Shown: piece by piece, positions 15,390 through 42,599 of the stretch
Numbering within the stretch: position 1 is the stretch's first letter
Layout of the letters: the number at the start of each line of letters is the position of its first letter
From: Anaerolineales bacterium
GTDB taxonomy: Bacteria > Chloroflexota > Anaerolineae > Anaerolineales > UBA11579
Assembly: GCA_963662985.1 (NCBI GenBank)
Contig: OY760066.1
Location: 167,801 to 231,800, forward strand
Direction of reading: 5' to 3'
DNA length: 64,000 nt
Made by a program: the position numbers and the translations under genes
Notes under the pieces: model-generated
Databases searched by the model: none
What the model was told of the DNA's origin: nothing
What the model saw: the letters and a program-made list of their open reading frames with translations, nothing else

Positions 15390-15560
15390 TTATTTCTTAT
15401 TTCATTGTTTCTATTAACACAAATTTACTATATCATAATTTGGCTACTTTTTATACAAATTAACCTAATTTACGGAAGATTTGAAATATCGTTATGGATA
15501 TTATTAATTCAAATAATTAATTTTTCTATAACTTTGTTTACATTTTTGATTTCATTTAAA

Positions 15561-15569
15561 TGTTAAAAT
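15561..15569 (+). promoter_or_regulatory. Candidate extended -10 promoter element (TGtTAAAAT) upstream of larC
   Basis: TGTTAAAAT lies ~35 nt upstream of the larC GTG start, with an AGGTAGG ribosome-binding site in between. Confidence 0.3.
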
Positions 15570-15604
15570 AGAGTCTGAAAATACGATAAAAAAGGTAGGT
15601 TTTT

Positions 15605-18537: not shown

Positions 18538-18567
18538 TTAGATTTAATTGAAAAGATTTGCTACAAT
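18538..18567 (+). promoter_or_regulatory. Candidate sigma-70-type promoter for PTS regulator (TTAGAT-N18-TACAAT)
   Basis: Hexamer match by eye ~30 nt upstream of ATG 18597. Confidence 0.3.
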
Positions 18568-18596
18568 TTAATTATTGTAAAGAAAGTCTTTTCATA

Positions 18597-20513
18597 ATGA
18601 AAATTGAACAAAGAAAATATCAATTAATTCAATATTTTTTATATCATCAAGATACTGTCACAAGCGAAGTGTTGGCACGCTATTTAAATGTAACATCACG
18701 AACTGTGAGAGAAGATCTGAAAGAATTAACTAAAGAATTAGCTGCTGAAAATATTCATTTGTTATCGATTCAAGGAAAAGGTTTTTATATCGATGATAAA
18801 GATTATTCTGCTTTGTCTATTTATTTAAAAAAATTGATGAATGATCCTATGTTCCTTTTGTCAGCTGTGGAAAATTCTTTTCAAATTTTAAGAATTTTAT
18901 TCTTAGAAAGAGATTATATCTGTATTGAAGATTTAGCAGAAAAAGTGTTCTTAGGTAAGTCAAGTGTGGAAAAAGAATTTGAAACGGTTGAAAATTGGCT
19001 TAAGCAATATAACCTCGTATTAAAAAAGAAAAAAACTCTGGGAATCCGAATCTCAGGTGCTGAAAAAAATTTCCGAATTGGTTTAATTCAGTTAATTTAT
19101 GTTTTTTCTTTTCGAAATAATCTCACAACCAATGATCTATTTTCACCCATTTTTGATAAAAATATTCTTCAAATAATAAATGATTTGGTAAATGATCATA
19201 TCCATCATCCTGCATTTAATTATTCACAATTTGCTTATCAAACAATCATTTTGTATTTAGCAATCCTAATTTGGCGAGTTCGATCTGGTTCTTTAATTGA
19301 AGAAAAACAAACTTCTAAAAAGTATGATGAGATTGATTTTTTGGTTGATGATTTATTGGGTTCTTTAGCAGAACGTTTAGCACTAGAAATTCCATTAATT
19401 GAATATTTTGGATTTGATGAGTTTTTGGCTCAACAAACAATCTTTTCTATTGAGACTATTCAATTAGAAGATGACCATTCTGAGTTTATTATTGAGTTGT
19501 TGACAAAGTTAGATAGCCAATTTCATCAAGGTTTTATCCACGATGCTCGCTTAATCGAACAGTTAAACTATTTTATTCATAAAACAAAAGTCATTGATTA
19601 TGGATTTAAATTTGAGAAACCATTTGATCTTAATACTTTAAAGAATAATTATCCGAGTGCATTGGATATGGCATTATATACTAAAATTGAAATCGAAGAT
19701 TTTTATAACCAGCAAATAAATGATCACTCTTATATTGAGCTTGCGATTTTATTCTCTGCAGCATTAGAAAAAAAATTATTAGAAGGATCTTCAAAAAAAT
19801 GGAGAGCTGCTATTATTAATTCGATGGGATTTGAGATTTCTAGTTTATTACAGAGCAAAATCCAACGATTATTTCCCCAATTAATTTTAGTTGGCGTTTT
19901 TCCAACTTATCAAATAAATGATTTAGGACGACAAGGAATCGATTTTCTGATCTCAACAAGTATGATTGAAAATTGTACAATCCCTTTTGTGGAAATAACG
20001 AATTTTTTAGATGACAATGATTATTTAAAAATTGGTAGATTTCTGAAAGAGATTGAGCAAGCCGATTTTGAAAAATATTTCTTTCAATCTCTATTTGAAG
20101 AAAGTATATTCATTACCGATATTAAAGAAAAAACACCTCAAAAAATTATCTCTAAAATGGGTAATCGATTGGTCGAAGTTGGGCATGTATCCCCTTCTTT
20201 TATTGATGCAGCATTGACACGAGAAAAAACAATGGCAACTGATATTGGTAATCTTGTAGCAATTCCGCATGCGTTATCCTATGGAAGAAAATCATCAATT
20301 GCAGTGGGGCTTCTCAATGATGCAGTTGATTGGGGAAATGAAAAGGTTAAAATTGTCTTTCTACTCAATATTCGATATGAAGATATTGAAAGAATGAAAT
20401 CCATTTTTTCATATTTTTATGATCTTGTACAATCAAAAAAGAAAATCAATCAATTAATAGATACAAAACAATTTGATATGTTCATTCAAATTCTCAAAAA
20501 AGGAGAAATTTAA
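18597..20513 (+). CDS. PRD-containing PTS-responsive transcriptional activator (MtlR/LicR-type: HTH, PRDs, EIIB-like, C-terminal EIIA-2 domain)
   Basis: N-terminal HTH region (VTSEVLARYLNVTSRTVREDLKEL). C-terminal EIIA-2-type domain with phosphorylatable His context (GNLVAIPHALSY ... KIVFLLNI). Start taken at MKIEQRKYQ (ATG 18597) rather than the track start 18558. Confidence 0.75.
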   Translation: MKIEQRKYQLIQYFLYHQDTVTSEVLARYLNVTSRTVREDLKELTKELAAENIHLLSIQGKGFYIDDKDYSALSIYLKKLMNDPMFLLSAVENSFQILRILFLERDYICIEDLAEKVFLGKSSVEKEFETVENWLKQYNLVLKKKKTLGIRISGAEKNFRIGLIQLIYVFSFRNNLTTNDLFSPIFDKNILQIINDLVNDHIHHPAFNYSQFAYQTIILYLAILIWRVRSGSLIEEKQTSKKYDEIDFLVDDLLGSLAERLALEIPLIEYFGFDEFLAQQTIFSIETIQLEDDHSEFIIELLTKLDSQFHQGFIHDARLIEQLNYFIHKTKVIDYGFKFEKPFDLNTLKNNYPSALDMALYTKIEIEDFYNQQINDHSYIELAILFSAALEKKLLEGSSKKWRAAIINSMGFEISSLLQSKIQRLFPQLILVGVFPTYQINDLGRQGIDFLISTSMIENCTIPFVEITNFLDDNDYLKIGRFLKEIEQADFEKYFFQSLFEESIFITDIKEKTPQKIISKMGNRLVEVGHVSPSFIDAALTREKTMATDIGNLVAIPHALSYGRKSSIAVGLLNDAVDWGNEKVKIVFLLNIRYEDIERMKSIFSYFYDLVQSKKKINQLIDTKQFDMFIQILKKGEI

Positions 20514-31288: not shown

Positions 31289-32713
31289 ATGGATTTTTTA
31301 ATGCTGATTATTGTTGTAATCGTCTTGCTGTTGGGGACATTTTTATCTTTATTATCAAGATATAAAAAATGCCCTTCAGATCAAATTCTTGTGATCTATG
31401 GGAAAGTTGGAAGAAATTCCACTGGTGACCATAAGAGTGCAAAATGTATTCATGGTGGGGCTGCCTTCATTTGGCCAATCATTCAAGATTATCAATTCTT
31501 GAGCTTGACACCCATCTCTATTAATGTGATTTTGACAAATGCATTGAGCCGCCAAAACATTCGTATCGATGTACCTTCCCGTTTTACGGTTGGTGTTTCT
31601 ACGGAAGCTGGTGTGATGCAAAATGCAGCAGAACGTTTGCTTGGTTTGAAACAAGCTGAAATCGAAGAATTGGCCAAGGATATTATCTTCGGGCAATTAC
31701 GTTTGGTTGTGGCAACCATGGACATTGAAGAAATTAACACAGACCGAGACAAATTCTTGTCTGCTGTTTCTTCTAACGTGGAAACTGAATTGAAGAAAAT
31801 TGGTTTGCGATTGATTAACGTGAACGTGACCGATATTAAGGACGAATCTGGTTATATCGAAGCTTTGGGTAAGGAAGCAGCTGCAAAGGCTATTAATGAT
31901 GCAAAGAAAAGCGTGGCTGAAAAGAACCGCGATGGTTCCATCGGTGAAGCTTTGGCAATGCAAGATCAACGTATTCAAGTGGCAGAAGCAAACTCAAAAG
32001 CAATTGAAGGTGAAAACCAAGCAAAAATTACAATTGCAAATTCTGAAGCATTGCGACGGGAAAAGTTAGCTGAAGCAGAACGTAAGGCAACGATTGCAGA
32101 ACGTGTTCAAGCAGCTCAAGCTTTGGAAGAATCATTTGAAGCCGAAAAACTTTCGGAACAAGCACGTGCTATCCGTGACCAAGCTACAAAAGAAGCTGAC
32201 ATCATTGTTTCTGCAGAGATTGCAAAACGACAAGCTGAAATCAACGCAGCTGCTATGGCAGCAAAAACCCGTTTGGAAGCACAAGGTCAGGCAGATGCTA
32301 TCTTCTTGAAATTGGAAGCACAAGCAAAGGGTGCCCAAGAAATTTTGACGAAACAAGCAGAAGGCTTCAAAGAAATTGTGAAGGCCGCTGGCGGTAACTC
32401 CAATGAAGCAGTGAAGTTGATGATTGCTGAAAAGATGGAACAATTGGTGGCGATTCAAGTAGAAGCTATCAAGAATTTGAAGATCGACAAAGTTACAGTG
32501 TGGGACAGCATGGGCAATGGCGAACCAGCAACTGCAAACTTTTTATCTGGGATGACTAAATCAATTCCGCCAATGAATGAATTATTTGAAATGGCTGGGT
32601 TGGAATTGCCAGAGTTTTTGGGCAAGAAAAAGGATGATGGTTTGACGGTGGAAGTTGAAGCTAAAAAAGAAACCCCAAAAGCTGACACTGAAAAGAAAGA
32701 CAAAGAAAAATAG
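31289..32713 (+). CDS. Flotillin-like SPFH/band-7 protein (FloT-like) with C-terminal EA-rich coiled-coil repeats
   Basis: N-terminal TM, SPFH domain, long Ala/Glu-rich repeats (AEAERKATIAERVQAAQALEE ... RQAEINAAAMAAKTRLEAQGQAD). Confidence 0.85.
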   Translation: MDFLMLIIVVIVLLLGTFLSLLSRYKKCPSDQILVIYGKVGRNSTGDHKSAKCIHGGAAFIWPIIQDYQFLSLTPISINVILTNALSRQNIRIDVPSRFTVGVSTEAGVMQNAAERLLGLKQAEIEELAKDIIFGQLRLVVATMDIEEINTDRDKFLSAVSSNVETELKKIGLRLINVNVTDIKDESGYIEALGKEAAAKAINDAKKSVAEKNRDGSIGEALAMQDQRIQVAEANSKAIEGENQAKITIANSEALRREKLAEAERKATIAERVQAAQALEESFEAEKLSEQARAIRDQATKEADIIVSAEIAKRQAEINAAAMAAKTRLEAQGQADAIFLKLEAQAKGAQEILTKQAEGFKEIVKAAGGNSNEAVKLMIAEKMEQLVAIQVEAIKNLKIDKVTVWDSMGNGEPATANFLSGMTKSIPPMNELFEMAGLELPEFLGKKKDDGLTVEVEAKKETPKADTEKKDKEK

Positions 32714-32745
32714 GTCTTTCTAAGAATAGAATAACAAATTGAGTA

Positions 32746-32782
32746 AAAAGTAGGGATTATAACTTCCCTACTTTTTTATTTA
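32746..32782 (+). terminator. Rho-independent terminator after flotillin gene
   Basis: GTAGGGAttataactTCCCTAC followed by TTTTTTATTT. Confidence 0.75.
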
Positions 32783-32834
32783 ATTCAATATTGCTCAAAA
32801 TGTAAACACTTATTCTTTTTTAATAAAACGGTGT

Positions 32835-32860
32835 TCAAATGGATGTTTGTTGTTTATAAT
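32835..32860 (+). promoter_or_regulatory. Candidate promoter of etf/glt-like operon (TTCAAA ... TATAAT)
   Basis: Perfect TATAAT at 32855-32860. Weak -35 with sub-optimal 14-nt spacing. Confidence 0.3.
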
Positions 32861-32872
32861 ATTCTAATTGTA

Positions 32873-32898
32873 TGACGATTGGAGGATTTCAATCGTCA
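32873..32898 (+). promoter_or_regulatory. Perfect 9-bp inverted repeat TGACGATTG-N8-CAATCGTCA in leader of etfB (candidate operator / leader hairpin)
   Basis: Read directly. The dyad lies between the TATAAT and the etfB RBS/ATG (32931). Confidence 0.5.
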
Positions 32899-32930
32899 AG
32901 AAATCATTCTTATATTATTGGAGACATTTT

Positions 32931-33764
32931 ATGCGAATCATTGTACCGATCAAACAGGTACCCGAGACGACTAACGTCAAAATGGATCCGGAAACTGGCA
33001 CGATGCTACGTTCTGGACTAGCTAGTATTATTAATCCCCTTGACCTAAATTCTTTAGAAGCAGCGCTTCAACTTAAAGAACAGATGCAGCAGCGCCAGCA
33101 GAACCAGCAAAATAAGGATGATGACCATGAAGTCATTGCAATAAGTATGGGCCCGAAGAATGCCCACTATGCTTTGAAAGAGGCGATTGCAATGGGTTGC
33201 GATCGCGCTTTTTTATTAAGCGACCGGAAATTTTCTGGGGCTGATACGTGGGCAACTGCGTATGTTTTGACACAAGCGATCAAGAAAATCGGTGATTTTG
33301 ATTTGATTGTGTGCGGTGAGCGCGCGTCTGATGGGGACACTGGACAAGTGGGTCCGGGGATTGCGGCCTTTTTGGGGTTGCCATTGGCGACCTATGTGAG
33401 CCGGGCGCAAATGATCGCTGAGGATGTGGTGCAAATTGAGCGATTGGTGGAAGACGGAACGGAAATCTTGCGTACCCCTACGCCAGCAGTGCTGACTGTG
33501 TTGAAAGAGGCTGGCTATCCGCGGTTCCCCACTTTGAAGCAAAAATTAGCGGCTGAAGAAGTGGAGATACCCACTTGGGGACCGGATGAACTGGAAGCGG
33601 ATGCGGAGAAGATCGGGCTGAAAGGCTCCCCCACCCGAGTAGTGAAGATTGACAAACCACAAGTTGGACGAAAGGCAGAGCTTGTTGCCGGCAGAGATAA
33701 AGCCGACCAAGACAATGCGGTGCAACGTGTGGTTGATTTTCTTAAAGAACGAAATTTGCTATAA
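32931..33764 (+). CDS. etfB: Electron transfer flavoprotein beta subunit (EtfB/FixA)
   Basis: MRIIVPIKQVPETTNVKMDPETGTMLRSG matches the canonical EtfB N-terminus. ...LIVCGERASDGDTGQVGP... is also EtfB-like. Start set at ATG 32931 with GGAG 9 nt upstream. The track ORF starts at 32868. Confidence 0.85.
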   Translation: MRIIVPIKQVPETTNVKMDPETGTMLRSGLASIINPLDLNSLEAALQLKEQMQQRQQNQQNKDDDHEVIAISMGPKNAHYALKEAIAMGCDRAFLLSDRKFSGADTWATAYVLTQAIKKIGDFDLIVCGERASDGDTGQVGPGIAAFLGLPLATYVSRAQMIAEDVVQIERLVEDGTEILRTPTPAVLTVLKEAGYPRFPTLKQKLAAEEVEIPTWGPDELEADAEKIGLKGSPTRVVKIDKPQVGRKAELVAGRDKADQDNAVQRVVDFLKERNLL

Positions 33765-33773
33765 GGATGAGGT

Positions 33774-34811
33774 GTGAGCATGAGTATAGCTATTGATAAA
33801 AGTGAATGGAAAGATGTGTGGACATTGGCAGAGTTTAACCACGGTAAGATGCATGGCGTCTCATTTGAATTGTTGGCATGGGGGCGTGACTTGGCAGATG
33901 ACCGTGGGTGCAAGCTGTGTTCTGTGGTTTTGACAGATGAGATTGGTGATGCTGAATTGAATCAATTATTTGCACATGGTGCCGATATGATTTATGTGGT
34001 GACACACCCCGCTTTGAAGAACTTCATCACGGAGATGAATGCAAAAGTGGTACGTAAGTTGGTGGAAGATTTGAAGCCAGAAGTGTTTTTGGCTGCTGCA
34101 ACAACAACAGGACGAACGGTGATGCCTTATGTGGCGATTCAAACACGGGCCGGTTTGACAGCAGATTGCACAGGTTTGGCGATTGACCCAGAAACGGGCG
34201 AATTACATCAAACCCGTCCGGCAATTGGGGGAAACATTATGGCGACAATCAAGACCCCTGATGCACGACCGCAAATGGCAACGGTGCGACCAAAGTCTAA
34301 GAAGCCGTTGACTGCAGATGAGAGCCGCTCTGGGGATGTGGTGCGGGTGGAAATGCCCGAAGAATTCTTTGTGACCAAAATGACTATGGACACTTTTATT
34401 GCAAATGATTTAAATGAAATACCCGTGGAAGAAGCAGACATTGTAGTTTCTGGTGGTGCTGGAGTTGGCAATTTAGGCAACTTTGCGCTGCTGGAAGACT
34501 TGGCAGATGTGTTGGGGGGTACGGTGGGAGTGAGCCGAGTGCCAGTGGACCAAGGATGGCGACCGTATATTAAGCAAGTGGGGATGTCAGGCAAGACAAT
34601 TGCACCGAAGTTATATATTGCGTGTGGAATCTCTGGGACGGTGCATCATATTGTGGGGATGCAAACTTCGGAAACGATTGTGGCTATTAACACTGATCCT
34701 GAAGCAAAAATCTTCCAAGTGGCTGACTTAGGCGTGGTGGGGGACTTGACCAAACTACTACCGAAACTAACTGCAAAAATCAAAGAAGAAAAAGAAAGGA
34801 TGGCCTTGTGA
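33774..34811 (+). CDS. etfA: Electron transfer flavoprotein alpha subunit (EtfA/FixB)
   Basis: C-terminal FAD-binding region (PKLYIACGISGTVHHIVGMQTSETIVAINTDPEAKIFQVADLGVVGDL) is diagnostic of EtfA. Confidence 0.85.
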   Translation: MSMSIAIDKSEWKDVWTLAEFNHGKMHGVSFELLAWGRDLADDRGCKLCSVVLTDEIGDAELNQLFAHGADMIYVVTHPALKNFITEMNAKVVRKLVEDLKPEVFLAAATTTGRTVMPYVAIQTRAGLTADCTGLAIDPETGELHQTRPAIGGNIMATIKTPDARPQMATVRPKSKKPLTADESRSGDVVRVEMPEEFFVTKMTMDTFIANDLNEIPVEEADIVVSGGAGVGNLGNFALLEDLADVLGGTVGVSRVPVDQGWRPYIKQVGMSGKTIAPKLYIACGISGTVHHIVGMQTSETIVAINTDPEAKIFQVADLGVVGDLTKLLPKLTAKIKEEKERMAL

Positions 34812-37378
34812 TGGCAACTCCTATCAAAAAAACAAGTCGTTATCATATTGAAACTGCTCCTGCACCGGCACCTTTTGATTATCCGGTGGATTTTCGTAAA
34901 GATGTGAAGGATGATTATGTAAAATATGGGCATCAAGGATTGCCCTATCATCGCACTGGGGGAGACCCACATTGGACGCCACAAGTGATTTCTCAAATTT
35001 GGTATCAAGCAGAAACAGGGAAGATTCCGATTTCGGGGGCTGGCTATGGTGGTGGATTTGCAGAACATGGCTTTGATGGTATTTGGCTGGATATGTCTGA
35101 AATTGTGCGCCCTACTCGAGATGGAATCCATGGTCGGGAATATATTTCTACGATCATTGACTTGGGAGTGCGGTTGCCTCAATTGCATTTTAGCGAAGAA
35201 GGATTGTTGGTGGAAGAGACACCAAAGATGCTCTCAATCCCAGTGCCAATTGTGTTTGACCCAATCCCAATGAAAATTCCGGGACGAGCATTACATCTAT
35301 CTGTGGCGAAAGCGGCACATGCTTTGAAAGTGTTTGCATTGATTAAATTTGAAGATCTTGCAGAGGATTTATTGCCCTATCAAGATGCAATTATCCCCTT
35401 ATTGGAAGATTTGGATAAATTGGACAGTGACTGGGTGAAACAAGCCCCGATGGTGGCAGTGGCCGCTGATGGCAAGACTGCAATGGCACGCTATGCTGAG
35501 GTGACAAAGGCTTTGCCTGAAGCAACGGTGATGATGCGATTGCCAATGACACCGAGCACTAAAGAGACAGTGCATGCTTTGATCGATGCAGGATGTGCTT
35601 CTTTTCATTTTTATGCGGATGACCAAGCCGAAGAATTTGAGGGGACACGGTCTTTGCCAAAGGCTTTGATCGAATTGCACAATGAATTGATTGACCGACG
35701 CACAAGAGATTTGGTTTCGATTGTGGTGAGCGGTGGGATTGCAAATGCAGAACATTTGCCTAAGTCGATCATCTGCGGAGCGGATGCAGTGGCGATTGAT
35801 TTTGTGACGATTTCCGCTTTGGGATGCGCTTTGTGGGCAGATATTCGACATGGTTGCAAAGTGGAAAAGGGTGAGATTGACCCTGAGTGGGGGGCACAAC
35901 GATTGATCAATTTAGTGAATGCATGGCGTGACCAATTGCTGGAAGCGATGGGAGCAATGGGACTGCGAGAAGTGCGCCGAATGCGGGGTGAAATGGGACG
36001 AGCGATGTTTTATGATGAAGAAGAAGCACGCTTCCGAAAATTGTTCACTCGACCAGAAGGGGTGGATGTGCCAATGTTGCCGGCATTGAAGGCGAATGAT
36101 GCAGAAATTGAAGGTGATTTGCGTTGGACAACCCAATTATTATTGGCTACGGCAGAACAAGCACGCAGTGGTAAGCCGGGAACGTCTAAGTTGGAATATC
36201 GACATGGGCGCTCAAATGGCGGCTTTGACCGAATGCGATTCTTATTTGAATTAGAAGAAGATATGAGCAAGTTTGCGTGGGATGAAGATGCTGTGGACGA
36301 AGTGGACCTGAGCTTGGCCTTGAACCATCGTGAAGACGGACGGCCTGAATTGACGATTCCGCAACCTTGGTATGGCGGGGGGATGTCGTTTGGGTCCGTG
36401 AGTGTGAACACGATGCTGTCACGTGTGCGTGCAGCAGAAGCTTTTGATTCGTTTATTTCCACTGGCGAAGGTGGGTATCCGGAAGATTTGATTCCCTATT
36501 CTAAACATATGATTACTCAAGTGGCAACAGGGCTGTTTGGGGTTCGGGAAGAGACAATCCAACGCGCACCAATTGTGGAGTTTAAGTATGCTCAAGGTGC
36601 CAAACCCGGCTTGGGAGGGCACTTGTTGGGTAGCAAGTCTACGGAAGCAGTGGCAAAAATGCGCCAAGCGGTGCAAGGGATTAGTTTGTTCTCTCCGTTC
36701 CCATTCCATAGTGTGTATTCGGTGGAAGACCATAAAAAGCATGTAGACTGGATTAAGACGGTGAATCCGGAAGCGTTGATTTCGGTGAAAGTGTCTACGC
36801 CAACAGATGTGGATATGGTGGCAGTGGGCTCCTATTATGCAGGGGCGAATATTTTGCATGTGGATGGTGCGTACGGAGGTACGGGGGCAGCACCGGAAAT
36901 TGCGAAGAAGAATATTGCGTTGCCGATTGAATATGCGATTAGCCGCATCCATCATTTTTTGATTAATGAAGGGATTCGCGACGAATTAGTGGTGATTGCT
37001 TCAGGTGGTGTGCGCACGGCATTTGACATTGCAAAGGCGATTGCGTTGGGGGCTGATGGAGTGGTGATTGGCACAGCAGATTTGGTGGCGATTGGATGTG
37101 TTCGGTTGGCATGTTGTGAAAAGGATGATGGCTGTCCGTTTGGGATTACTACGACGGATCCAAATTTAGCGAAGCTGGTGCAAGTGGAAGAATCGACAGA
37201 ACGAATTAAGAATATGTATGCTTCATGGAAAATCCAATTAGCGACTATTTTGAAGAAATTGGGGATGCGCTCGATTGGTGAATTGCGCGGACGGACGGAC
37301 CTGTTGGTGTATTTGGATAAAGAAGGTGATTCCTATCAAGGGACAAAAATAAATCATAAGGAGAACATCCATGCATAA
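34811..37378 (+). CDS. Glutamate-synthase-family FMN/TIM-barrel protein with two tandem GltS-domain-2-like modules (GlxC / archaeal GltB-like); second module carries Cys cluster
   Basis: The C-terminal module has the Glu_synthase FMN-domain signature (…ASGGVRTAFDIAKAIALGADGVVIGTADLVAIGCVRLACCEKDDGCPFGITT…) and a G-rich FMN-phosphate loop. The N-terminal module repeats the same pattern in degenerate form (…IVVSGGIANAEHLPKSIICGADAVAIDFVTISALGCALWADIRHGCK…). ATG 34811 overlaps the etfA stop. Confidence 0.8.
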   Translation: MATPIKKTSRYHIETAPAPAPFDYPVDFRKDVKDDYVKYGHQGLPYHRTGGDPHWTPQVISQIWYQAETGKIPISGAGYGGGFAEHGFDGIWLDMSEIVRPTRDGIHGREYISTIIDLGVRLPQLHFSEEGLLVEETPKMLSIPVPIVFDPIPMKIPGRALHLSVAKAAHALKVFALIKFEDLAEDLLPYQDAIIPLLEDLDKLDSDWVKQAPMVAVAADGKTAMARYAEVTKALPEATVMMRLPMTPSTKETVHALIDAGCASFHFYADDQAEEFEGTRSLPKALIELHNELIDRRTRDLVSIVVSGGIANAEHLPKSIICGADAVAIDFVTISALGCALWADIRHGCKVEKGEIDPEWGAQRLINLVNAWRDQLLEAMGAMGLREVRRMRGEMGRAMFYDEEEARFRKLFTRPEGVDVPMLPALKANDAEIEGDLRWTTQLLLATAEQARSGKPGTSKLEYRHGRSNGGFDRMRFLFELEEDMSKFAWDEDAVDEVDLSLALNHREDGRPELTIPQPWYGGGMSFGSVSVNTMLSRVRAAEAFDSFISTGEGGYPEDLIPYSKHMITQVATGLFGVREETIQRAPIVEFKYAQGAKPGLGGHLLGSKSTEAVAKMRQAVQGISLFSPFPFHSVYSVEDHKKHVDWIKTVNPEALISVKVSTPTDVDMVAVGSYYAGANILHVDGAYGGTGAAPEIAKKNIALPIEYAISRIHHFLINEGIRDELVVIASGGVRTAFDIAKAIALGADGVVIGTADLVAIGCVRLACCEKDDGCPFGITTTDPNLAKLVQVEESTERIKNMYASWKIQLATILKKLGMRSIGELRGRTDLLVYLDKEGDSYQGTKINHKENIHA

Positions 37379-38774
37379 ATTGACGACCTCCCGAATTGAT
37401 CGGATTTTGGATTCGCGCCGAAAGCTCTATGACGATGCTGTTTTGCACCCGAATAATTCTCGTGAAGAAGCCGCAGAAGGCGGTTGTGGTGTAGTGGGGG
37501 TGACGAGTTCCTTCCCAGTGGCGGGACGACATTTCTTCCCTGCGGCAGAGCAAATGCATAACCGTGGGAATGGGAAAGGTGGCGGAATTGCGGCGGCTGG
37601 TTTGAACCCGGCACAAATGGGTGTTACGGCGGATGTTTTGCGCGATGCAACGATGTTGCAAGTGGCTTATTTGGATGCGGATTGTGTGGCTGAAGTGGAA
37701 GCGGAATGTATCTTCCCTGTCTATGATGTGTTGACATCCTATCGAGTGGACACGGTGGAGGATTACCGAGAGATTGAAGGATTAGAAATTCAACCACCGG
37801 ACGTGGTGCGCTATTTTGTGCGGGCAAAAAAAGACTCATTGGCTGATTTTGCCAAGGATAATGCGCTAGAAGACTTGACCGCGCGCGAATTGGAAGATGA
37901 ATTTGTATATCGCAATAGCTTTTTCCTAAACACAAAATTCTATGCAAGTTTGGGTGAACAACGGGCTTTTGTGATGTCTCATGGGCGCGATTTGTTAATC
38001 TTTAAAATTGTGGGGTATGCAGAAGAAGCGGCGAAATATTATAAGCTTGATGAGATGGAAGCGCATGTGTGGATTGCCCATCAACGCTATCCGACAAAAG
38101 GGCGAGTGTGGCACCCCGGGGGAGCGCACCCCTTCATTGGTATGAACGAGGCTTTGGTGCATAATGGGGATTTTGCGAATTATCATGCAGTGTCGGATTA
38201 TTTGAAACAACGGAATATCAAACCTTTATTCTTGACCGATACGGAGATTAGCGTGTTGTTGTTTGATCTGTTGGATCGTACCTATCATTATCCGTTGGAA
38301 GCCATTGTGGAAGCATTGGCACCAACCACAGAACGGGATTTTTTGAAATTGCCAGCAGAAAAACAAACGCTCTATCGCCAAATTCAAAAAACACATATCC
38401 ATGCTTCTCCTGATGGACCATGGTTCTTCATCATTGCACGCAGTCAACCTGAAAAGGACTTGTGTCAATTGCTGGGGATTACGGATACCTCGATGCTGCG
38501 CCCACAAGTGTTTGCGTTGGTCGACTCTGAGATGGAAGGCAAACGCTATCAAATGGGACTGTTGGGCTCTGAAAAACAAGCGATTGATGCAACCTTGAAG
38601 AGCTTGAGCAAAGAATATACGGCGATTCCGACAGTGGCAGACCGTTATTGGAATGCACGAGGGGGGTCTTATAATGATGGCGGTTCCTTCACTTTTTCGG
38701 TGCGCAAGAAAAGCCCCGATGCCCCCTATGGGAGCATGCGCGAGTTGTGTGCCGCAACAAGTTTGGAGAGGTGA
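37371..38774 (+). CDS. Class-II (Ntn) glutamine amidotransferase domain protein, glutamate-synthase type (GlxB / archaeal GltA-like)
   Basis: CGVVGV candidate nucleophile Cys. HQRYPTKG and HNGDFANY resemble the GltS GATase RxSTNT / NGEINT motifs. Overlaps the upstream gene by 8 nt with an AAGGAGA RBS. Confidence 0.7.
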   Translation: MHKLTTSRIDRILDSRRKLYDDAVLHPNNSREEAAEGGCGVVGVTSSFPVAGRHFFPAAEQMHNRGNGKGGGIAAAGLNPAQMGVTADVLRDATMLQVAYLDADCVAEVEAECIFPVYDVLTSYRVDTVEDYREIEGLEIQPPDVVRYFVRAKKDSLADFAKDNALEDLTARELEDEFVYRNSFFLNTKFYASLGEQRAFVMSHGRDLLIFKIVGYAEEAAKYYKLDEMEAHVWIAHQRYPTKGRVWHPGGAHPFIGMNEALVHNGDFANYHAVSDYLKQRNIKPLFLTDTEISVLLFDLLDRTYHYPLEAIVEALAPTTERDFLKLPAEKQTLYRQIQKTHIHASPDGPWFFIIARSQPEKDLCQLLGITDTSMLRPQVFALVDSEMEGKRYQMGLLGSEKQAIDATLKSLSKEYTAIPTVADRYWNARGGSYNDGGSFTFSVRKKSPDAPYGSMRELCAATSLER

Positions 38775-40006
38775 TTGAAGCACCAAAAGGACAAACACAT
38801 TGGAACCCAACTGGCGAAGAACAATTGGTGGATGATGGGTTTGCTGAGACTATATTGGAAAAAGTGCTGGCGGGAGGAGATGATTCCTTTGAAGCCATGA
38901 CAGCACCTGTACAAAAAGATTTGGGCAAGTGGATATCCAACTATAGTTACGAAGCAATTGCTGGGGCTGTGGACGCTTGGGTGAAGGCTGGGGCGGATGT
39001 GGCAAAGACTAAGGCAATTTTAGCATTATTAACCCGTTTGCGGGATAGTATGTTTGACCCGCAAGAAAAACGACGGGCTTCGATCTTGGATATTGTGGAT
39101 GCAGGGATAAATGCGCTGTTAGACCGCGTACCTTCTTTTGATGCAAAGGCAAAACTCTCTCGGATTACTTGGGAGACACGTGATGCGCTACAAGCTCCGA
39201 CGCATGTGGATGCTATTTTGGTGGTGGATGTGAGTGGCTTCCCAGCGGAAGGGGATGAAGGACCGGGAATCTTCCAAGCAAATGCGTTCCGAATGGGATG
39301 GCACCATTTGGTGTCTTATCGCTGGGCGGGACAACGTTTCTTAGGATGTAATTTGAGCAAGGTCACAGATGCGCTGCGCTTTGATGTTTATGGCTCCCCG
39401 GGGGATTATTTTGCAAGCGGGATGGATGGCGACGAGGTGGCAATGATGATCCACACGAATGCACAAGACCAATTGGCGCAGATTTTCAACCACGGGACAT
39501 TGGTGATCTATGGTGATGTGGGGCAAACGTTTATGTATGGCGCAAAAGGCGGAAAAGCTTTTGTGCGCGGAAACGTGGCCGGACGTCCGTTGATTAATGC
39601 AGTGGGTGCACCGCGAGTGGTGATCAATGGAACCTGTTTGGATTATTTGGCAGAATCGTTTATGGCAGGCGATCCACTGAATGGGGGTGGTTTTGTGATT
39701 TTGAATGGGATTGAATTTGATGACCATGGACAAATGGTTGCTTTGGATGAACCTTATCGCGGGAATAATTTATTCTCTTTGGCATCTGGGGGAGCACTCT
39801 ATGTGCGCGATCCCTATGCGAAGTTGGATGAAAATCAACTGAACGGCGGTATGTTTGCAGATTTGAGTGAAGCGGATTGGAATTTGATCCTGCCCTATTT
39901 AGAAGAAAATGAAGCCTATTTTGGCATTGATGTGGATGCTTTGCTGACTGTGGATGGCAAGGTGATGGCTCCAGAAAAGGTTTATCGTAAAATTTGCCCG
40001 AAGTAA
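38771..40006 (+). CDS. GXGXG-motif beta-helix protein (glutamate synthase C-terminal domain-like; GlxD / archaeal GltC-like)
   Basis: VIYGDVGQTFMYGAKGGKAFVRGNVAGRPLINAVGAPRVVINGTCLDYLAESFMAGD matches the GXGXG repeat domain of GltS. Start proposed at GTG 38771 (GTGA overlap with the upstream stop, GGAGAGG RBS). The track start is 38747. Confidence 0.75.
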   Translation: MIEAPKGQTHWNPTGEEQLVDDGFAETILEKVLAGGDDSFEAMTAPVQKDLGKWISNYSYEAIAGAVDAWVKAGADVAKTKAILALLTRLRDSMFDPQEKRRASILDIVDAGINALLDRVPSFDAKAKLSRITWETRDALQAPTHVDAILVVDVSGFPAEGDEGPGIFQANAFRMGWHHLVSYRWAGQRFLGCNLSKVTDALRFDVYGSPGDYFASGMDGDEVAMMIHTNAQDQLAQIFNHGTLVIYGDVGQTFMYGAKGGKAFVRGNVAGRPLINAVGAPRVVINGTCLDYLAESFMAGDPLNGGGFVILNGIEFDDHGQMVALDEPYRGNNLFSLASGGALYVRDPYAKLDENQLNGGMFADLSEADWNLILPYLEENEAYFGIDVDALLTVDGKVMAPEKVYRKICPK

Positions 40007-40030
40007 GTTTGGATTAAATTTTTGTTTGAT

Positions 40031-40064
40031 GAAGACCCTCTTGCAATTGAGAGAGGGTTTTTTG
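40031..40064 (+). terminator. Rho-independent terminator ending the etf/glt-like operon
   Basis: CCCTCTtgcaattgagAGAGGG followed by TTTTTTG. Confidence 0.75.
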
Positions 40065-40419
40065 TGCATATTTTTTGTCTAATATTTTTTGACAGAATTG
40101 GACAGGTGTCAAGCTATTTTTGGACACTTTTTGGACACTTTTTTGACAGGTGTCCAATTTTTTCCGGGCTGAATTTTGGCATATAGAGAGGCATGATGTA
40201 GGAGAGATGACATATGGAGGGTCTTGAGGGCTAAATTTTGACAGTTTAGCCAAATATTTTTTTATGTGTCAAATTTTGCCAGTAGCTTTAATGTTCTATT
40301 TATTATACCATATTACTTGGTTCTTTTTACCTCATTTTGCATTTAATTTAGGCGGGTAAGAATAAATAAAATTCTCCATCTGAACTATAATTGTAATAGA
40401 GTAACTGAAAGGACAAACA

Positions 40420-40779
40420 ATGACCTATCGTGAGTTATCGCCAGAAGAAAAACGTGTGATCTTGAACAAGGGCACAGAAATACCTTATACAGGAGAATAT
40501 ACAGATTTTAAAGGTGCAGGGACTTATCATTGTAAACAATGTGATGCAGCGCTTTATCGCTCTGTGGATAAGTTTGATTCGGGCTGCGGTTGGCCTAGCT
40601 TTGACGATGAGATTCCGGGTGCTGTGGAACGTAAGTTGGATGCAGATGGGCGCCGAACAGAGATTTTGTGCGCGAATTGTGGCGGACATTTGGGACATGT
40701 GTTCGAAGGAGAGCGAATGACGCCGAAGAATACGCGCCATTGTGTGAACTCAATCTCGATGGTGTTCAAAGGTGAGTGA
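40420..40779 (+). CDS. msrB: Peptide-methionine (R)-S-oxide reductase MsrB (zinc-binding type)
   Basis: CKQC ... CANC zinc-ligand pairs. Catalytic [13 protein letters not shown] motif. Confidence 0.9.
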
Positions 40780-40793
40780 AATAATATAAAATT

Positions 40794-40830
40794 TCAAAGG
40801 AGTTTGAAAAGACAAACTCCTTTTTTTTAT
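40794..40830 (+). terminator. Rho-independent terminator after msrB
   Basis: AAAGGAGTTTGaaaagaCAAACTCCTTT followed by TTTTTTTAT. Confidence 0.75.
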
Positions 40831-40862
40831 TAACATTTTAATTTTTAATGTTATAGTTAAAT

Positions 40863-42599
40863 ATGTTTAATTCTGATCAGAAAAAACAATTTCAATTCAT
40901 CGTTAATTTGGTCATGTTATTGAGTATTGTCTTTTCTTCAATATTACCTACTATCGCAACTATCTCTTCCCCAAAAGAAAATTCAAATCGATTATTAGCT
41001 AGCGGACAACGCGCTTATGATTTTGGTTTTTATGACCAAGCACTCGAAAAATTTAATGCTGCAATTGATAAATATAAATTTAATTATGAAGCTTATGCGT
41101 ATCGAGCTGCCACGGAAATGGCGCTTGGTGACCTAAGTGCGGCTATGAATGATGTTTTGGTGGCGGAAGAAAATATTGATAATGATGTATTTATCAAAAC
41201 GATTAAAGCTCAAATTCTTCAATCTGAGTATGATTCTCTTAACACAACAGAGATTGCAGAATTGGAAAATTTGCTTGATGAATTAGTTCTTACCGACCCT
41301 GAAAATTATGATTATCGACTTTGGCGAGGATCTTATTATTTTAATCAAAATCAATTTGAAAAAACAATTGAAGATTTGAAGAATTTTACTAGTAGAGCAG
41401 ATGCAATGTTGTTCACCGGTTCAAGTTATTTTCAATTGGGACAATATGAGCTGGCGATTGATACTTTAGAAATAGCAAATGCTATGTCACCTCAAAATGA
41501 TTCGATCTTGCAACAATTGGTAATCTCGTATTTTAGTGAAGAAGAGTATGAGAAAGCATTAAATTATCAAATTCAATTAGCAAATTTGGGAACTTCGGAT
41601 CCGGTGGTCTATAAGGATTTAGGGATGCTCTATATTTTGAATGAAGAGTATGAACTTGCTTTAGATAGTTATGAAAAAGCTTCAATTTATGCCCCTGTTG
41701 ATAAAGAAATTTTTTACCAAATAGGGGTTTTATCTTATGAAATTAATGAGTATGAAAAAGCCGTTGATGCTTTTAGTGAAGCTATTGCGTTACAAAATGA
41801 TTGGAAAGATGCCTATTTGAATCGCGCAACCGCTTATATTAGTCTTGAAGAATATGAATTGGCGTATGAAGATTATTTGAGTTGTTTGGCATTTGACCCT
41901 GAATCTATTGATATATTACAAAAAATTAGTGAATTAGATATATTTTTGGGGAGAATTGACACTTCTATTGAGCATTTTGGTCAATTAATTGAAAAAGATC
42001 CAGAAAATATACAATATTTGTTCACTCATGCATATTTAGTAATCACTAATCAGATCGAAAACTGTTCTGTAGTGGAACCAGAGTTGGAAAAAATCATTGA
42101 AGTTGATGAATCTCAAACAATTCCTTATCATTATTTAGGTCTATGCGAATATTCTAAAGGCAATCATGAAAAAGCAGCTGAGTATTGGAATTTAGCACTC
42201 ACAGGTTTACCTGAGACTATTGATTCTTTATATTTTTTGGCGTTTCTTGATTATGAAAATTCTAATTATGAAAGTGCTTTAGAAAAAATCAATCAATTAG
42301 AATCTTTTGACAGTAATTATGCTTTGGGATATTTTCTTAAGGCAAATATTGAGCTTGAGTTGGCTAAATATCAAGAAGCGATTGAAGATTATGATGTAGC
42401 TATCGCAAATGACATCAATGTTATGATTGCATATTTTAATCAAGGTGTTGCTTATTTTAATTTAGGTAATTTGTTAGAAGCGGAGAGTTGTTTCTTGATT
42501 GCACTGGAATTCGCAAATAAAGATGGACAGATTGAATTAGGTGCCAATATTCAAAGTGCTTTAGACACTCTATATGAACACCCTGACTGGGGAAAATAA
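40863..42599 (+). CDS. Tetratricopeptide-repeat (TPR) protein with N-terminal signal/anchor
   Basis: Hydrophobic N-terminus. Many 34-aa repeats with the W/LG/Y ... A/F/Y ... A/P pattern (…AYAYRAATEMALGDLSAAMNDV…, …AYLNRATAYISLEEYELAYEDY…). Confidence 0.7.
   Translation: MFNSDQKKQFQFIVNLVMLLSIVFSSILPTIATISSPKENSNRLLASGQRAYDFGFYDQALEKFNAAIDKYKFNYEAYAYRAATEMALGDLSAAMNDVLVAEENIDNDVFIKTIKAQILQSEYDSLNTTEIAELENLLDELVLTDPENYDYRLWRGSYYFNQNQFEKTIEDLKNFTSRADAMLFTGSSYFQLGQYELAIDTLEIANAMSPQNDSILQQLVISYFSEEEYEKALNYQIQLANLGTSDPVVYKDLGMLYILNEEYELALDSYEKASIYAPVDKEIFYQIGVLSYEINEYEKAVDAFSEAIALQNDWKDAYLNRATAYISLEEYELAYEDYLSCLAFDPESIDILQKISELDIFLGRIDTSIEHFGQLIEKDPENIQYLFTHAYLVITNQIENCSVVEPELEKIIEVDESQTIPYHYLGLCEYSKGNHEKAAEYWNLALTGLPETIDSLYFLAFLDYENSNYESALEKINQLESFDSNYALGYFLKANIELELAKYQEAIEDYDVAIANDINVMIAYFNQGVAYFNLGNLLEAESCFLIALEFANKDGQIELGANIQSALDTLYEHPDWGK

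Follow-up and report, generated by a model that had tools for sequence, protein, structure and literature searches.

Why should a non-coding spacer carry the hexamer TTGACA and its inverse TGTCAA many times over? The question is raised by the DNA upstream of msrB in a genome labelled Anaerolineales, within the 64-kb stretch of contig OY760066.1 (~30% G+C) that was analysed here as a whole and that we call the window. The spacer separates msrB from a GC-richer operon on its upstream side. An original prediction, made from this same DNA, had described an array of half-sites at 40066-40300 and proposed a multi-site operator for a dimeric regulator of msrB, of the operon or of both, or else a relic recombination site at the edge of a GC-rich island. 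Here we tentatively favour, at a probability of about 0.4, a reading in which the 82-bp core of the array (40084-40165) offers multiple binding sites for a protein on bent DNA and is confined to one lineage. A protein-binding array predicts a dense cluster of sites, helical phasing and conservation above the neutral level, and all three are present.

A dense and helically phased array of half-sites

Every repeat element that had been listed for 40066-40300 is indeed present, although some of the figures needed correction. The spacer is 413 bp long (40007-40419) and not ~230 bp, the repeat TTTTGACAG occurs three times (40087, 40141 and 40236) where two copies had been counted, and the outlying dyad of TTTGACA (40237-40243) and TGTCAAA (40267-40273) has a gap of 23 nt instead of 24. 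Counted over the 235 bp of 40066-40300, TTG(G)ACA/TGTC(C)AA half-sites number nine, against an expectation of 0.40 +/- 0.61 and a maximum of 4 in 5000 dinucleotide shuffles. The over-representation relative to shuffled controls thus holds, and the cluster is, as had been argued, too dense for a single promoter -35 element. Window-wide the half-sites occur at 1.3 per kb and the array is the top-ranked 235-bp stretch of the 64 kb. Within the window, matches to the 16-mer TTGRACAGGTGTCMAA with up to two mismatches fall in the array only (0.2 expected), both exact copies of the 10-mer dyad core GACAGGTGTC lie there as well, and nothing comparable was seen in the other spacers.

The core holds seven half-sites, each with a T5-6 tract before or after it. 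Site 1 (TTGACA, plus strand) lies at 40089-40094 and is followed by the dyad O1 (sites 2 and 3, TTGGACA-GG-TGTCAA), which coincides with the first of two predicted near-reciprocal 15-mers (TTGGACAGGTGTCAA, 40098-40112). Three tandem 11-nt units on the plus strand come next (sites 4-6, 40117-40149): the two copies of TTTTTGGACAC that had been noted before, at 40117-40127 and 40128-40138, and a third, imperfect one, TTTTTTGACAG, at 40139-40149. Read on the minus strand the units are CTGTCAA-AAAA, GTGTCCA-AAAA and GTGTCCA-AAAA. Sites 6 and 7 form the dyad O2 (TTGACA-GG-TGTCCAA) at the position of the second 15-mer (TTGACAGGTGTCCAA, 40143-40157). Five core sites share the plus orientation, each after a T5-6 tract, and their GACA words at 40091, 40101, 40123, 40134 and 40145 keep a 10.8-bp phase (resultant R = 0.985, p = 0.0007). 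The two inverted core sites pair with direct sites to give 15-16-bp dyads of the form TTG(G)ACA-GG-TGTC(C)AA. With direct repeats at five of its seven core sites, the array would be described too narrowly as the target of a dimeric regulator.

Further sites lie on either side of the core. Upstream, a degenerate inverted half-site (TGTCTAA, minus strand, 40076-40082; TGTCCAT in the group of relatives called clade B below) can pair with site 2, and its TGTC core is retained although the surrounding patch has diverged (8/17 identical). Downstream, the outlying dyad (sites 8 and 9, TTTGACA-N23-TGTCAAA, 40237-40273) keeps both half-sites in clades A' and B at spacings of N21-N23; the hairpin that it could form is weak or absent in clade B (-4.1 kcal/mol, z = +0.4). 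The purine-rich middle segment (40166-40232) evolves approximately neutrally and falls outside the constrained element.

Phased T-tracts raise the possibility that the shape of the DNA is all that matters here. The array ranks second among the loci of the window in phased A/T tracts (10-11-bp periodicity) and in predicted curvature, and the only indel found in it, of 11 bp, retains the phase. In a sequence-unspecific architectural bend the T-tracts would serve as an upstream curved element or as the target of a nucleoid protein, and the GACA words would be incidental. T-tracts suffice for curvature, yet it is the GACA/TGTC cores that never vary; in addition the dyads and inverted sites are left unexplained and no promoter lies immediately downstream. 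We hold this explanation to be quite unlikely. The only window locus that surpasses the array in A/T-tract periodicity, 15506-15526 (spacer 15390-15604, before larC), lies between a GGDEF gene and a LarC/LarE/LarB cluster, in a region of divergent promoters.

Conservation of the core within one lineage

Nine orthologous spacers were collected by MsrB and TPR protein searches and contig look-ups and aligned with that of the window, giving 10 sequences; one of them, L095, ends within the core and contributed only its right-hand part. Loci L083 and L084, reached via the TPR protein, and the MsrB matches L085-L088 were discarded as non-syntenic or as belonging to unrelated organisms. Eight spacers carry array sequence, in two further haplotypes besides that of the window. 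In L001, the closest genome (OY781052.2), and in L092 exactly one 11-bp unit is absent, which turns O2 into the perfect 7-2-7 palindrome TTGGACAGGTGTCCAA (TTGGACA-GG-TGTCCAA). In clade B (L081 and L093-L096) the middle unit is TTTTTTGACAC or TTTTTTGACAA. Because the sole indel is exactly one 11-bp unit, the phase of the array is kept. O1 is unchanged in each of the seven array-bearing relatives whose sequence includes it.

Identity in the core amounts to 94-99% across seven relatives, compared with 68-84% for the adjacent non-coding DNA. Divergence at 4-fold sites between the window and L001, which is 10.7%, served as the neutral yardstick. Only 1 of 71 core positions differs from L001 (P = 0.003 against the neutral value), and the middle segment, with differences at 11 of 67 positions, stands at the neutral level. 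The second comparison comes from L096, where a diverged block flanks the array on both sides and takes in the 3' end of the upstream gene, the pre-terminator spacer and the stretch from 40166 to the first msrB codons. Even so, 78 of the 82 core positions are identical in L096, as opposed to 68% in the other non-coding DNA of the diverged block (Fisher p = 6e-8), and the boundaries of the high-identity block coincide with the array edges. Six core positions vary among the relatives; none of them lies in a GACA/TGTC core, and one turns GGACAC into TGACAC, an interchange of half-site variants. Judging from these alignments, we think that the core is under purifying selection.

The locus around the core is a recombination mosaic. 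Clade B is only ~68-88% identical to the window at 40050-40083 and 40160-40470, and the flanking coding DNA is 94-100% identical. Beyond msrB, identity to L001 drops from 98% in MsrB to 72% in the TPR protein. In L001 (8517-11424) and L092 (3516-6363) the genes of an ECF sigma factor (Sigma70_r2/r4_2) and of a PD40-repeat protein of 782-785 aa separate msrB from the TPR gene, an insertion absent from the window (40779 to 40863); in L081 histidine kinase and ABC-transporter genes follow msrB instead.

Could the array then be non-functional repeat DNA, produced by replication slippage or local duplication, whose conservation is an artefact of mosaic recombination? Its 11-bp units are tandem and variable in copy number, O2 resembles O1 minus a 10-bp unit, in the sister species the array is decaying (L082) or lost (L091), and the locus is clearly recombinogenic. 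Neither the excess of conservation over 4-fold sites nor that over the non-coding flanks, on both sides of the core, is expected of such DNA, and the same is true of a high-identity block that matches the array edges. We regard slippage as decidedly unlikely.

Two genomes of a sister species, L082 and L091, are much more distant (coding DNA 63-88% identical, 4-fold-site divergence 57-65%). In both genomes ~206 bp corresponding to roughly 40134-40340 are absent; the L082 spacer holds a single degenerate O1 only (TTGGACAAGTATCAA), and that of L091 no remnant of the array, O1 being deleted. The array was also absent from the 79 other msrB loci examined. Conservation at orthologous loci, which the original prediction had set as a test, is found above the neutral level in a species-level clade but does not extend to the sister species. 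The array is restricted to one bacterial species group or lineage and does not belong to any msrB control shared across species. Given its absence from the sister species and the 79 other loci, it says nothing on msrB regulation in general, and a role as general msrB operator was dropped on the same grounds.

Hairpins, promoters and neighbouring genes

The operon upstream ends in an intrinsic terminator, T1 (40031-40064, plus strand; 12-bp stem, 8-nt loop and U-tract; -16.2 kcal/mol, z = -4.2), and an equivalent hairpin is found in 9 of the 9 relatives that cover this part, sister species included. A terminator scan returned a second, intrinsic-terminator-like structure within the core itself. 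This hairpin, H3 (40131-40163, plus strand), has a 10-bp stem built from sites 5 and 7 (40131-40157; UUGGACACUU / AGGUGUCCAA) with a 7-nt loop, and is followed by U6 (-15.2 kcal/mol, z = -4.6). It shows what characterizes an intrinsic terminator, that is a G+C-containing stem-loop and a U-tract on the same strand after a gene, and spans 33 of the 82 conserved bases. The potential to form it amounts to -12.3 kcal/mol in L001 and -10.2 kcal/mol in L093. The left half of the core (40084-40128), which contains O1, is as conserved as the right half, yet gives no stable RNA hairpin (-4.9 kcal/mol, z = -0.6), so that a terminator alone is insufficient to account for the constraint.

The element might still work at the RNA level, as a structured tail of the operon transcript in which a hairpin H1 (40075-40105) is followed by H3 as second terminator and the direct repeats are by-products of slippage or alternative pairing partners. 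H3 is nearly as stable as T1, and hairpin potential is present in all three lineages. The plus strand of 40066-40185 folds at z = -3.2 and that of the whole spacer at z = -4.2, compared with -1.6 for the minus strand, and three one-sided changes in H1 preserve pairing by converting G.U to G-C or A-U. However, T1 is already strong and little transcription should therefore reach the array. Neither H1 nor H3 needs site 1 or the conserved stretch 40106-40130, the left dyad has no stable hairpin, and in clade B the weaker H3 has an 18-nt loop in the predicted fold despite its conserved sequence. The core shows no compensatory two-sided change, the GACA words being kept rather than the pairing, and Rfam 15 gave no gathering-level match in the window (best local match over the array 12.5 bits, E = 5.6). 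We consider an RNA-level element possible, if on balance doubtful. A longer plus-strand hairpin at 40188-40333, suggested by RNAalifold with four two-sided changes, was rejected: its single-sequence z values are -1.7 and -0.06, and the minimum free energy fold of the window sequence pairs differently.

On the minus strand a candidate promoter motif lies downstream of the core. The extended -10-like sequence TGGTATAAT (TTATTATACCATA on the plus strand; 40302-40310) is a perfect match with no -35 match and faces the array and the operon 3' end. All 8 array-bearing relatives have it and its flanks unchanged, in a segment whose overall identity is ~70%. An unannotated small or antisense RNA could start from it (40310 to 40302) and pass through the array towards the operon 3' end, or could start from TTGACA(40112)-17-AAAAAT, the best minus-strand promoter candidate of the array, which is conserved in all array-bearing relatives; the ~206-bp segment that holds these features is the one absent from the sister species. 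Such a transcript appears unlikely to us. No minus-strand terminator was found, the minus-strand fold is no better than its shuffles (z = -1.6), the consensus minus-strand structure is without covariation, Rfam is as silent on this strand as on the other, and no open reading frame (ORF) is conserved, a 79-aa minus-strand ORF having its frame shifted by the 11-bp indel. A coding role is out for the same reason, as this is the sole sizeable ORF and the other small ones are not kept: read by eye on both strands, none of the small spacer ORFs is conserved, and a 31-aa hydrophobic frame from ~40265 does not stay open in L001, L092 or clade B.

Closer to msrB, the blocks GGTAAGAAT (40355-40363) and CCATCTGAA (40376-40384), followed by TATAAT/TTTAAT (40386-40391), make up a candidate msrB promoter or regulatory region on the plus strand. 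GGTAAGAAT and CCATCTRAA..TAATT (40376-40393) are the sole non-coding blocks that are invariant in 10 of 10 spacers, sister species included, and the 12 nt between the two vary freely. There is no canonical -35 at the usual distance from them. Their invariance suggests that 40355-40393 is probably a real msrB promoter or regulator site, and with these blocks lying ~200-300 bp further downstream the array was rejected as the msrB promoter.

The gene msrB itself (40420-40779, plus strand) encodes a SelR-domain protein of 119 aa (PF01641, E = 6.7e-43). It is followed by the gene of the TPR protein and by a giant ORF of 7108 aa on the minus strand (42668-63994), which has ~42% G+C against ~30% for the genome; its orthologues in the relatives measure 7560-8404 aa and no Pfam family is on record for them. 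The closest genome bears the label Anaerolineales bacterium, yet the DNA, at ~30% G+C, encodes PTS components with a Mga-type regulator and many GGDEF/HD-GYP proteins, and its genes use Shine-Dalgarno sites.

The upstream operon consists of the genes for ETF-beta (32868-33764), ETF-alpha (33774-34811), a GltB-like FMN subunit (34808-37378) and, last before the spacer, a GATase/GXGXG protein (37371-40006). The last of these carries a 1-bp deletion in the window at 38740-38750 (GCGCGAGTT-GTGTGCC, where L001 reads ...GTTGGTGTGCC), which leaves two overlapping ORFs, 37371-38774 (467 aa) and 38747-40006 (419 aa). It is one ORF of 878-910 aa in L001, L082, L091 and L092 and is split in L093 too, and the split reflects either a pseudogene or an assembly error in the GG run. 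The G+C fraction of this ETF/split glutamate-synthase-like operon (32868-40006) is 0.48 in the window against 0.34-0.39 in its flanks, and 0.41 against 0.30-0.35 in L082 (2730-9809). With a higher G+C than its flanks in either species, the operon has an old offset that does not mark a recent island and is due either to long-standing composition or to an ancient transfer.

This removes the setting in which the repeats had been imagined as an att-like relic at an island edge, since the sister species has the GC-richer operon without the array. More broadly, a relic of recombination or of a mobile element might be an att site, a transposon end or an element of the MITE/REP/PATE type. The mixture of direct and inverted short repeats resembles arm-type plus core sites, and the ~206 bp do differ by presence and absence between the lineage of the window and the sister species. 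But the borders of this indel show neither terminal inverted repeats nor a target duplication, no integrase or transposase gene was found, and the other operon border (32500-33100) has no half-site. In blastn searches the spacer found no second copy in the window or at the relatives' loci and no match in plasmid or phage collections. In scans of viral contigs the 16-mer had 114 matches, all single and due to chance, and the TTATTATACCATA block had 0, a metagenome scan with a degenerate pattern drawn from the orthologs gave two chance matches, both inside unrelated coding regions, and a full-text literature search for the dyad sequence retrieved eukaryotic primers only. A mobile relic is very improbable, and we reject the att and MITE readings along with that of a known RNA.

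A putative binding platform and its likeness to known systems

Taken together, the repeats, their phasing and the conservation of their core lead us to infer that 40084-40165 may be a cis-acting platform for a DNA-binding protein. Five direct GACA sites with T-tract flanks, phased at 10.8 bp, would all face the same side of a helix with a predicted intrinsic bend, and tandem monomers or dimers of a protein could assemble along them into a cooperative polymer. OmpR/PhoB-type winged-helix response regulators polymerise cooperatively in this way on 11-nt repeat units. In the right half of the core H3 and its U6 would serve as a back-up terminator behind T1. The protein might act on a weak promoter of either strand located within the array, or might insulate msrB from upstream transcription. 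The multi-site operator of the original prediction is thus borne out as far as a cluster beyond chance, helical phasing and conservation above neutral in two independent comparisons are concerned, but no evidence connects the array with either msrB or the upstream operon.

Several observations weigh against a protein-binding array. An artefact of mosaic recombination behind the conservation could occur in principle, though it would need a conversion patch coinciding with the array, and only three independent haplotypes carry the array at all. The sister species, whose gene order is identical, does without it in a spacer of only ~190 bp. The invariant msrB blocks lie ~200-300 bp downstream, beyond the ~100-bp range of an operator. 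None of the TTGACA hexamers of the array has a convincing conserved -10 partner; the best plus-strand promoter candidate, TTGACA-16-TAGGAT, is in the window itself mutated to CGGGCT. Some half-sites contain an additional G (TTGGACA beside TTGACA), a variation that sits badly with rigid recognition. Neither the rest of the 64-kb window nor ~70 kb of relatives' DNA has the motif again, and no regulon is visible there. No regulator gene is adjacent either, and the sole transcription factor among the scanned window ORFs of at least 120 aa, a Mga/HTH_11 PTS regulator (18558-20513), is 20 kb off.

Other candidates for a regulator were tried and rejected. The ECF sigma factor of L001 and L092 has upstream of its gene a TGAAAC-N17-CGCT sequence unlike the msrB blocks, and the gene is absent from the window. 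In L081 a 216-aa gene beside the histidine kinase, considered as a response regulator, has no Pfam domain. Sigma-54, CodY, CtsR, Spo0A, DnaA-box, IHF and Fis readings were unsuitable in sequence or in taxon.

It is tempting to speculate further that the array is the cis element of a regulatory device hitherto undescribed, belonging to an uncultured low-GC lineage that is labelled Anaerolineales. A protein polymerising on 11-bp GACA units over a terminator hairpin would there separate a redox operon from msrB, as an insulator or a roadblock that can be switched, or would drive an antisense promoter directed into the operon 3' end. We would call this a long shot. If a protein does bind, ten sites at a single locus would constitute a high-information motif with which to find the other targets of the regulator in a lineage represented by metagenomes only, and the array would be an example of a binding array growing by 11-bp slippage on top of a terminator.

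Parts of the array have counterparts among known elements. Like curved upstream DNA it has T5-6 tracts every 10.8-11 bp and a predicted curvature among the top two loci of the window, but its invariant positions are the GACA cores, beyond the T-tracts, and no promoter follows directly downstream. Like a tandem back-up terminator, H3 with U6 is placed ~95 nt after T1 on the same strand and at comparable stability; the conserved block, however, is far larger than the hairpin, and phased direct repeats are superfluous for a terminator. NarL/NarP-type sites are heptamers in either orientation and include a 7-2-7 inverted arrangement. The array likewise mixes isolated heptamers and 7-2-7 dyads, O2 being a perfect 7-2-7 in L001 and L092, but its heptamer sequence differs and no GerE/LuxR-type regulator was identified.

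The closest architectural parallel is with the PHO box, for which the comparison set comprised E. coli PhoB, the complex operators of Streptomyces PhoP and M. tuberculosis PhoP. The PHO box is made of 11-nt direct repeat units with 7 conserved and 4 less conserved, A/T-rich bases, the E. coli motif being CTGTCAT (PMC4415409). Units of this type are contiguous and helically phased and vary in number and organisation (PMC4415409; PMC4832192). The array has three contiguous 11-nt units (40149 to 40117, minus strand) and two more (40105 to 40085), and its minus-strand unit CTGTCAA may be compared with the CTGTCAT of E. coli. On the other hand two of the units share just 4 of 7 positions with CTGTCAT, the units are not beside a recognisable -10, dyads arise from two inverted sites, the vicinity lacks a response regulator with a DNA-binding domain, and the neighbours, msrB and the ETF/GltB-like operon, have no link to phosphate. 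We would read both the PHO-box and the NarL comparison as a resemblance in architecture only and not as membership. The array matches no known element and is an orphan, lineage-restricted element of a familiar cis-element kind.

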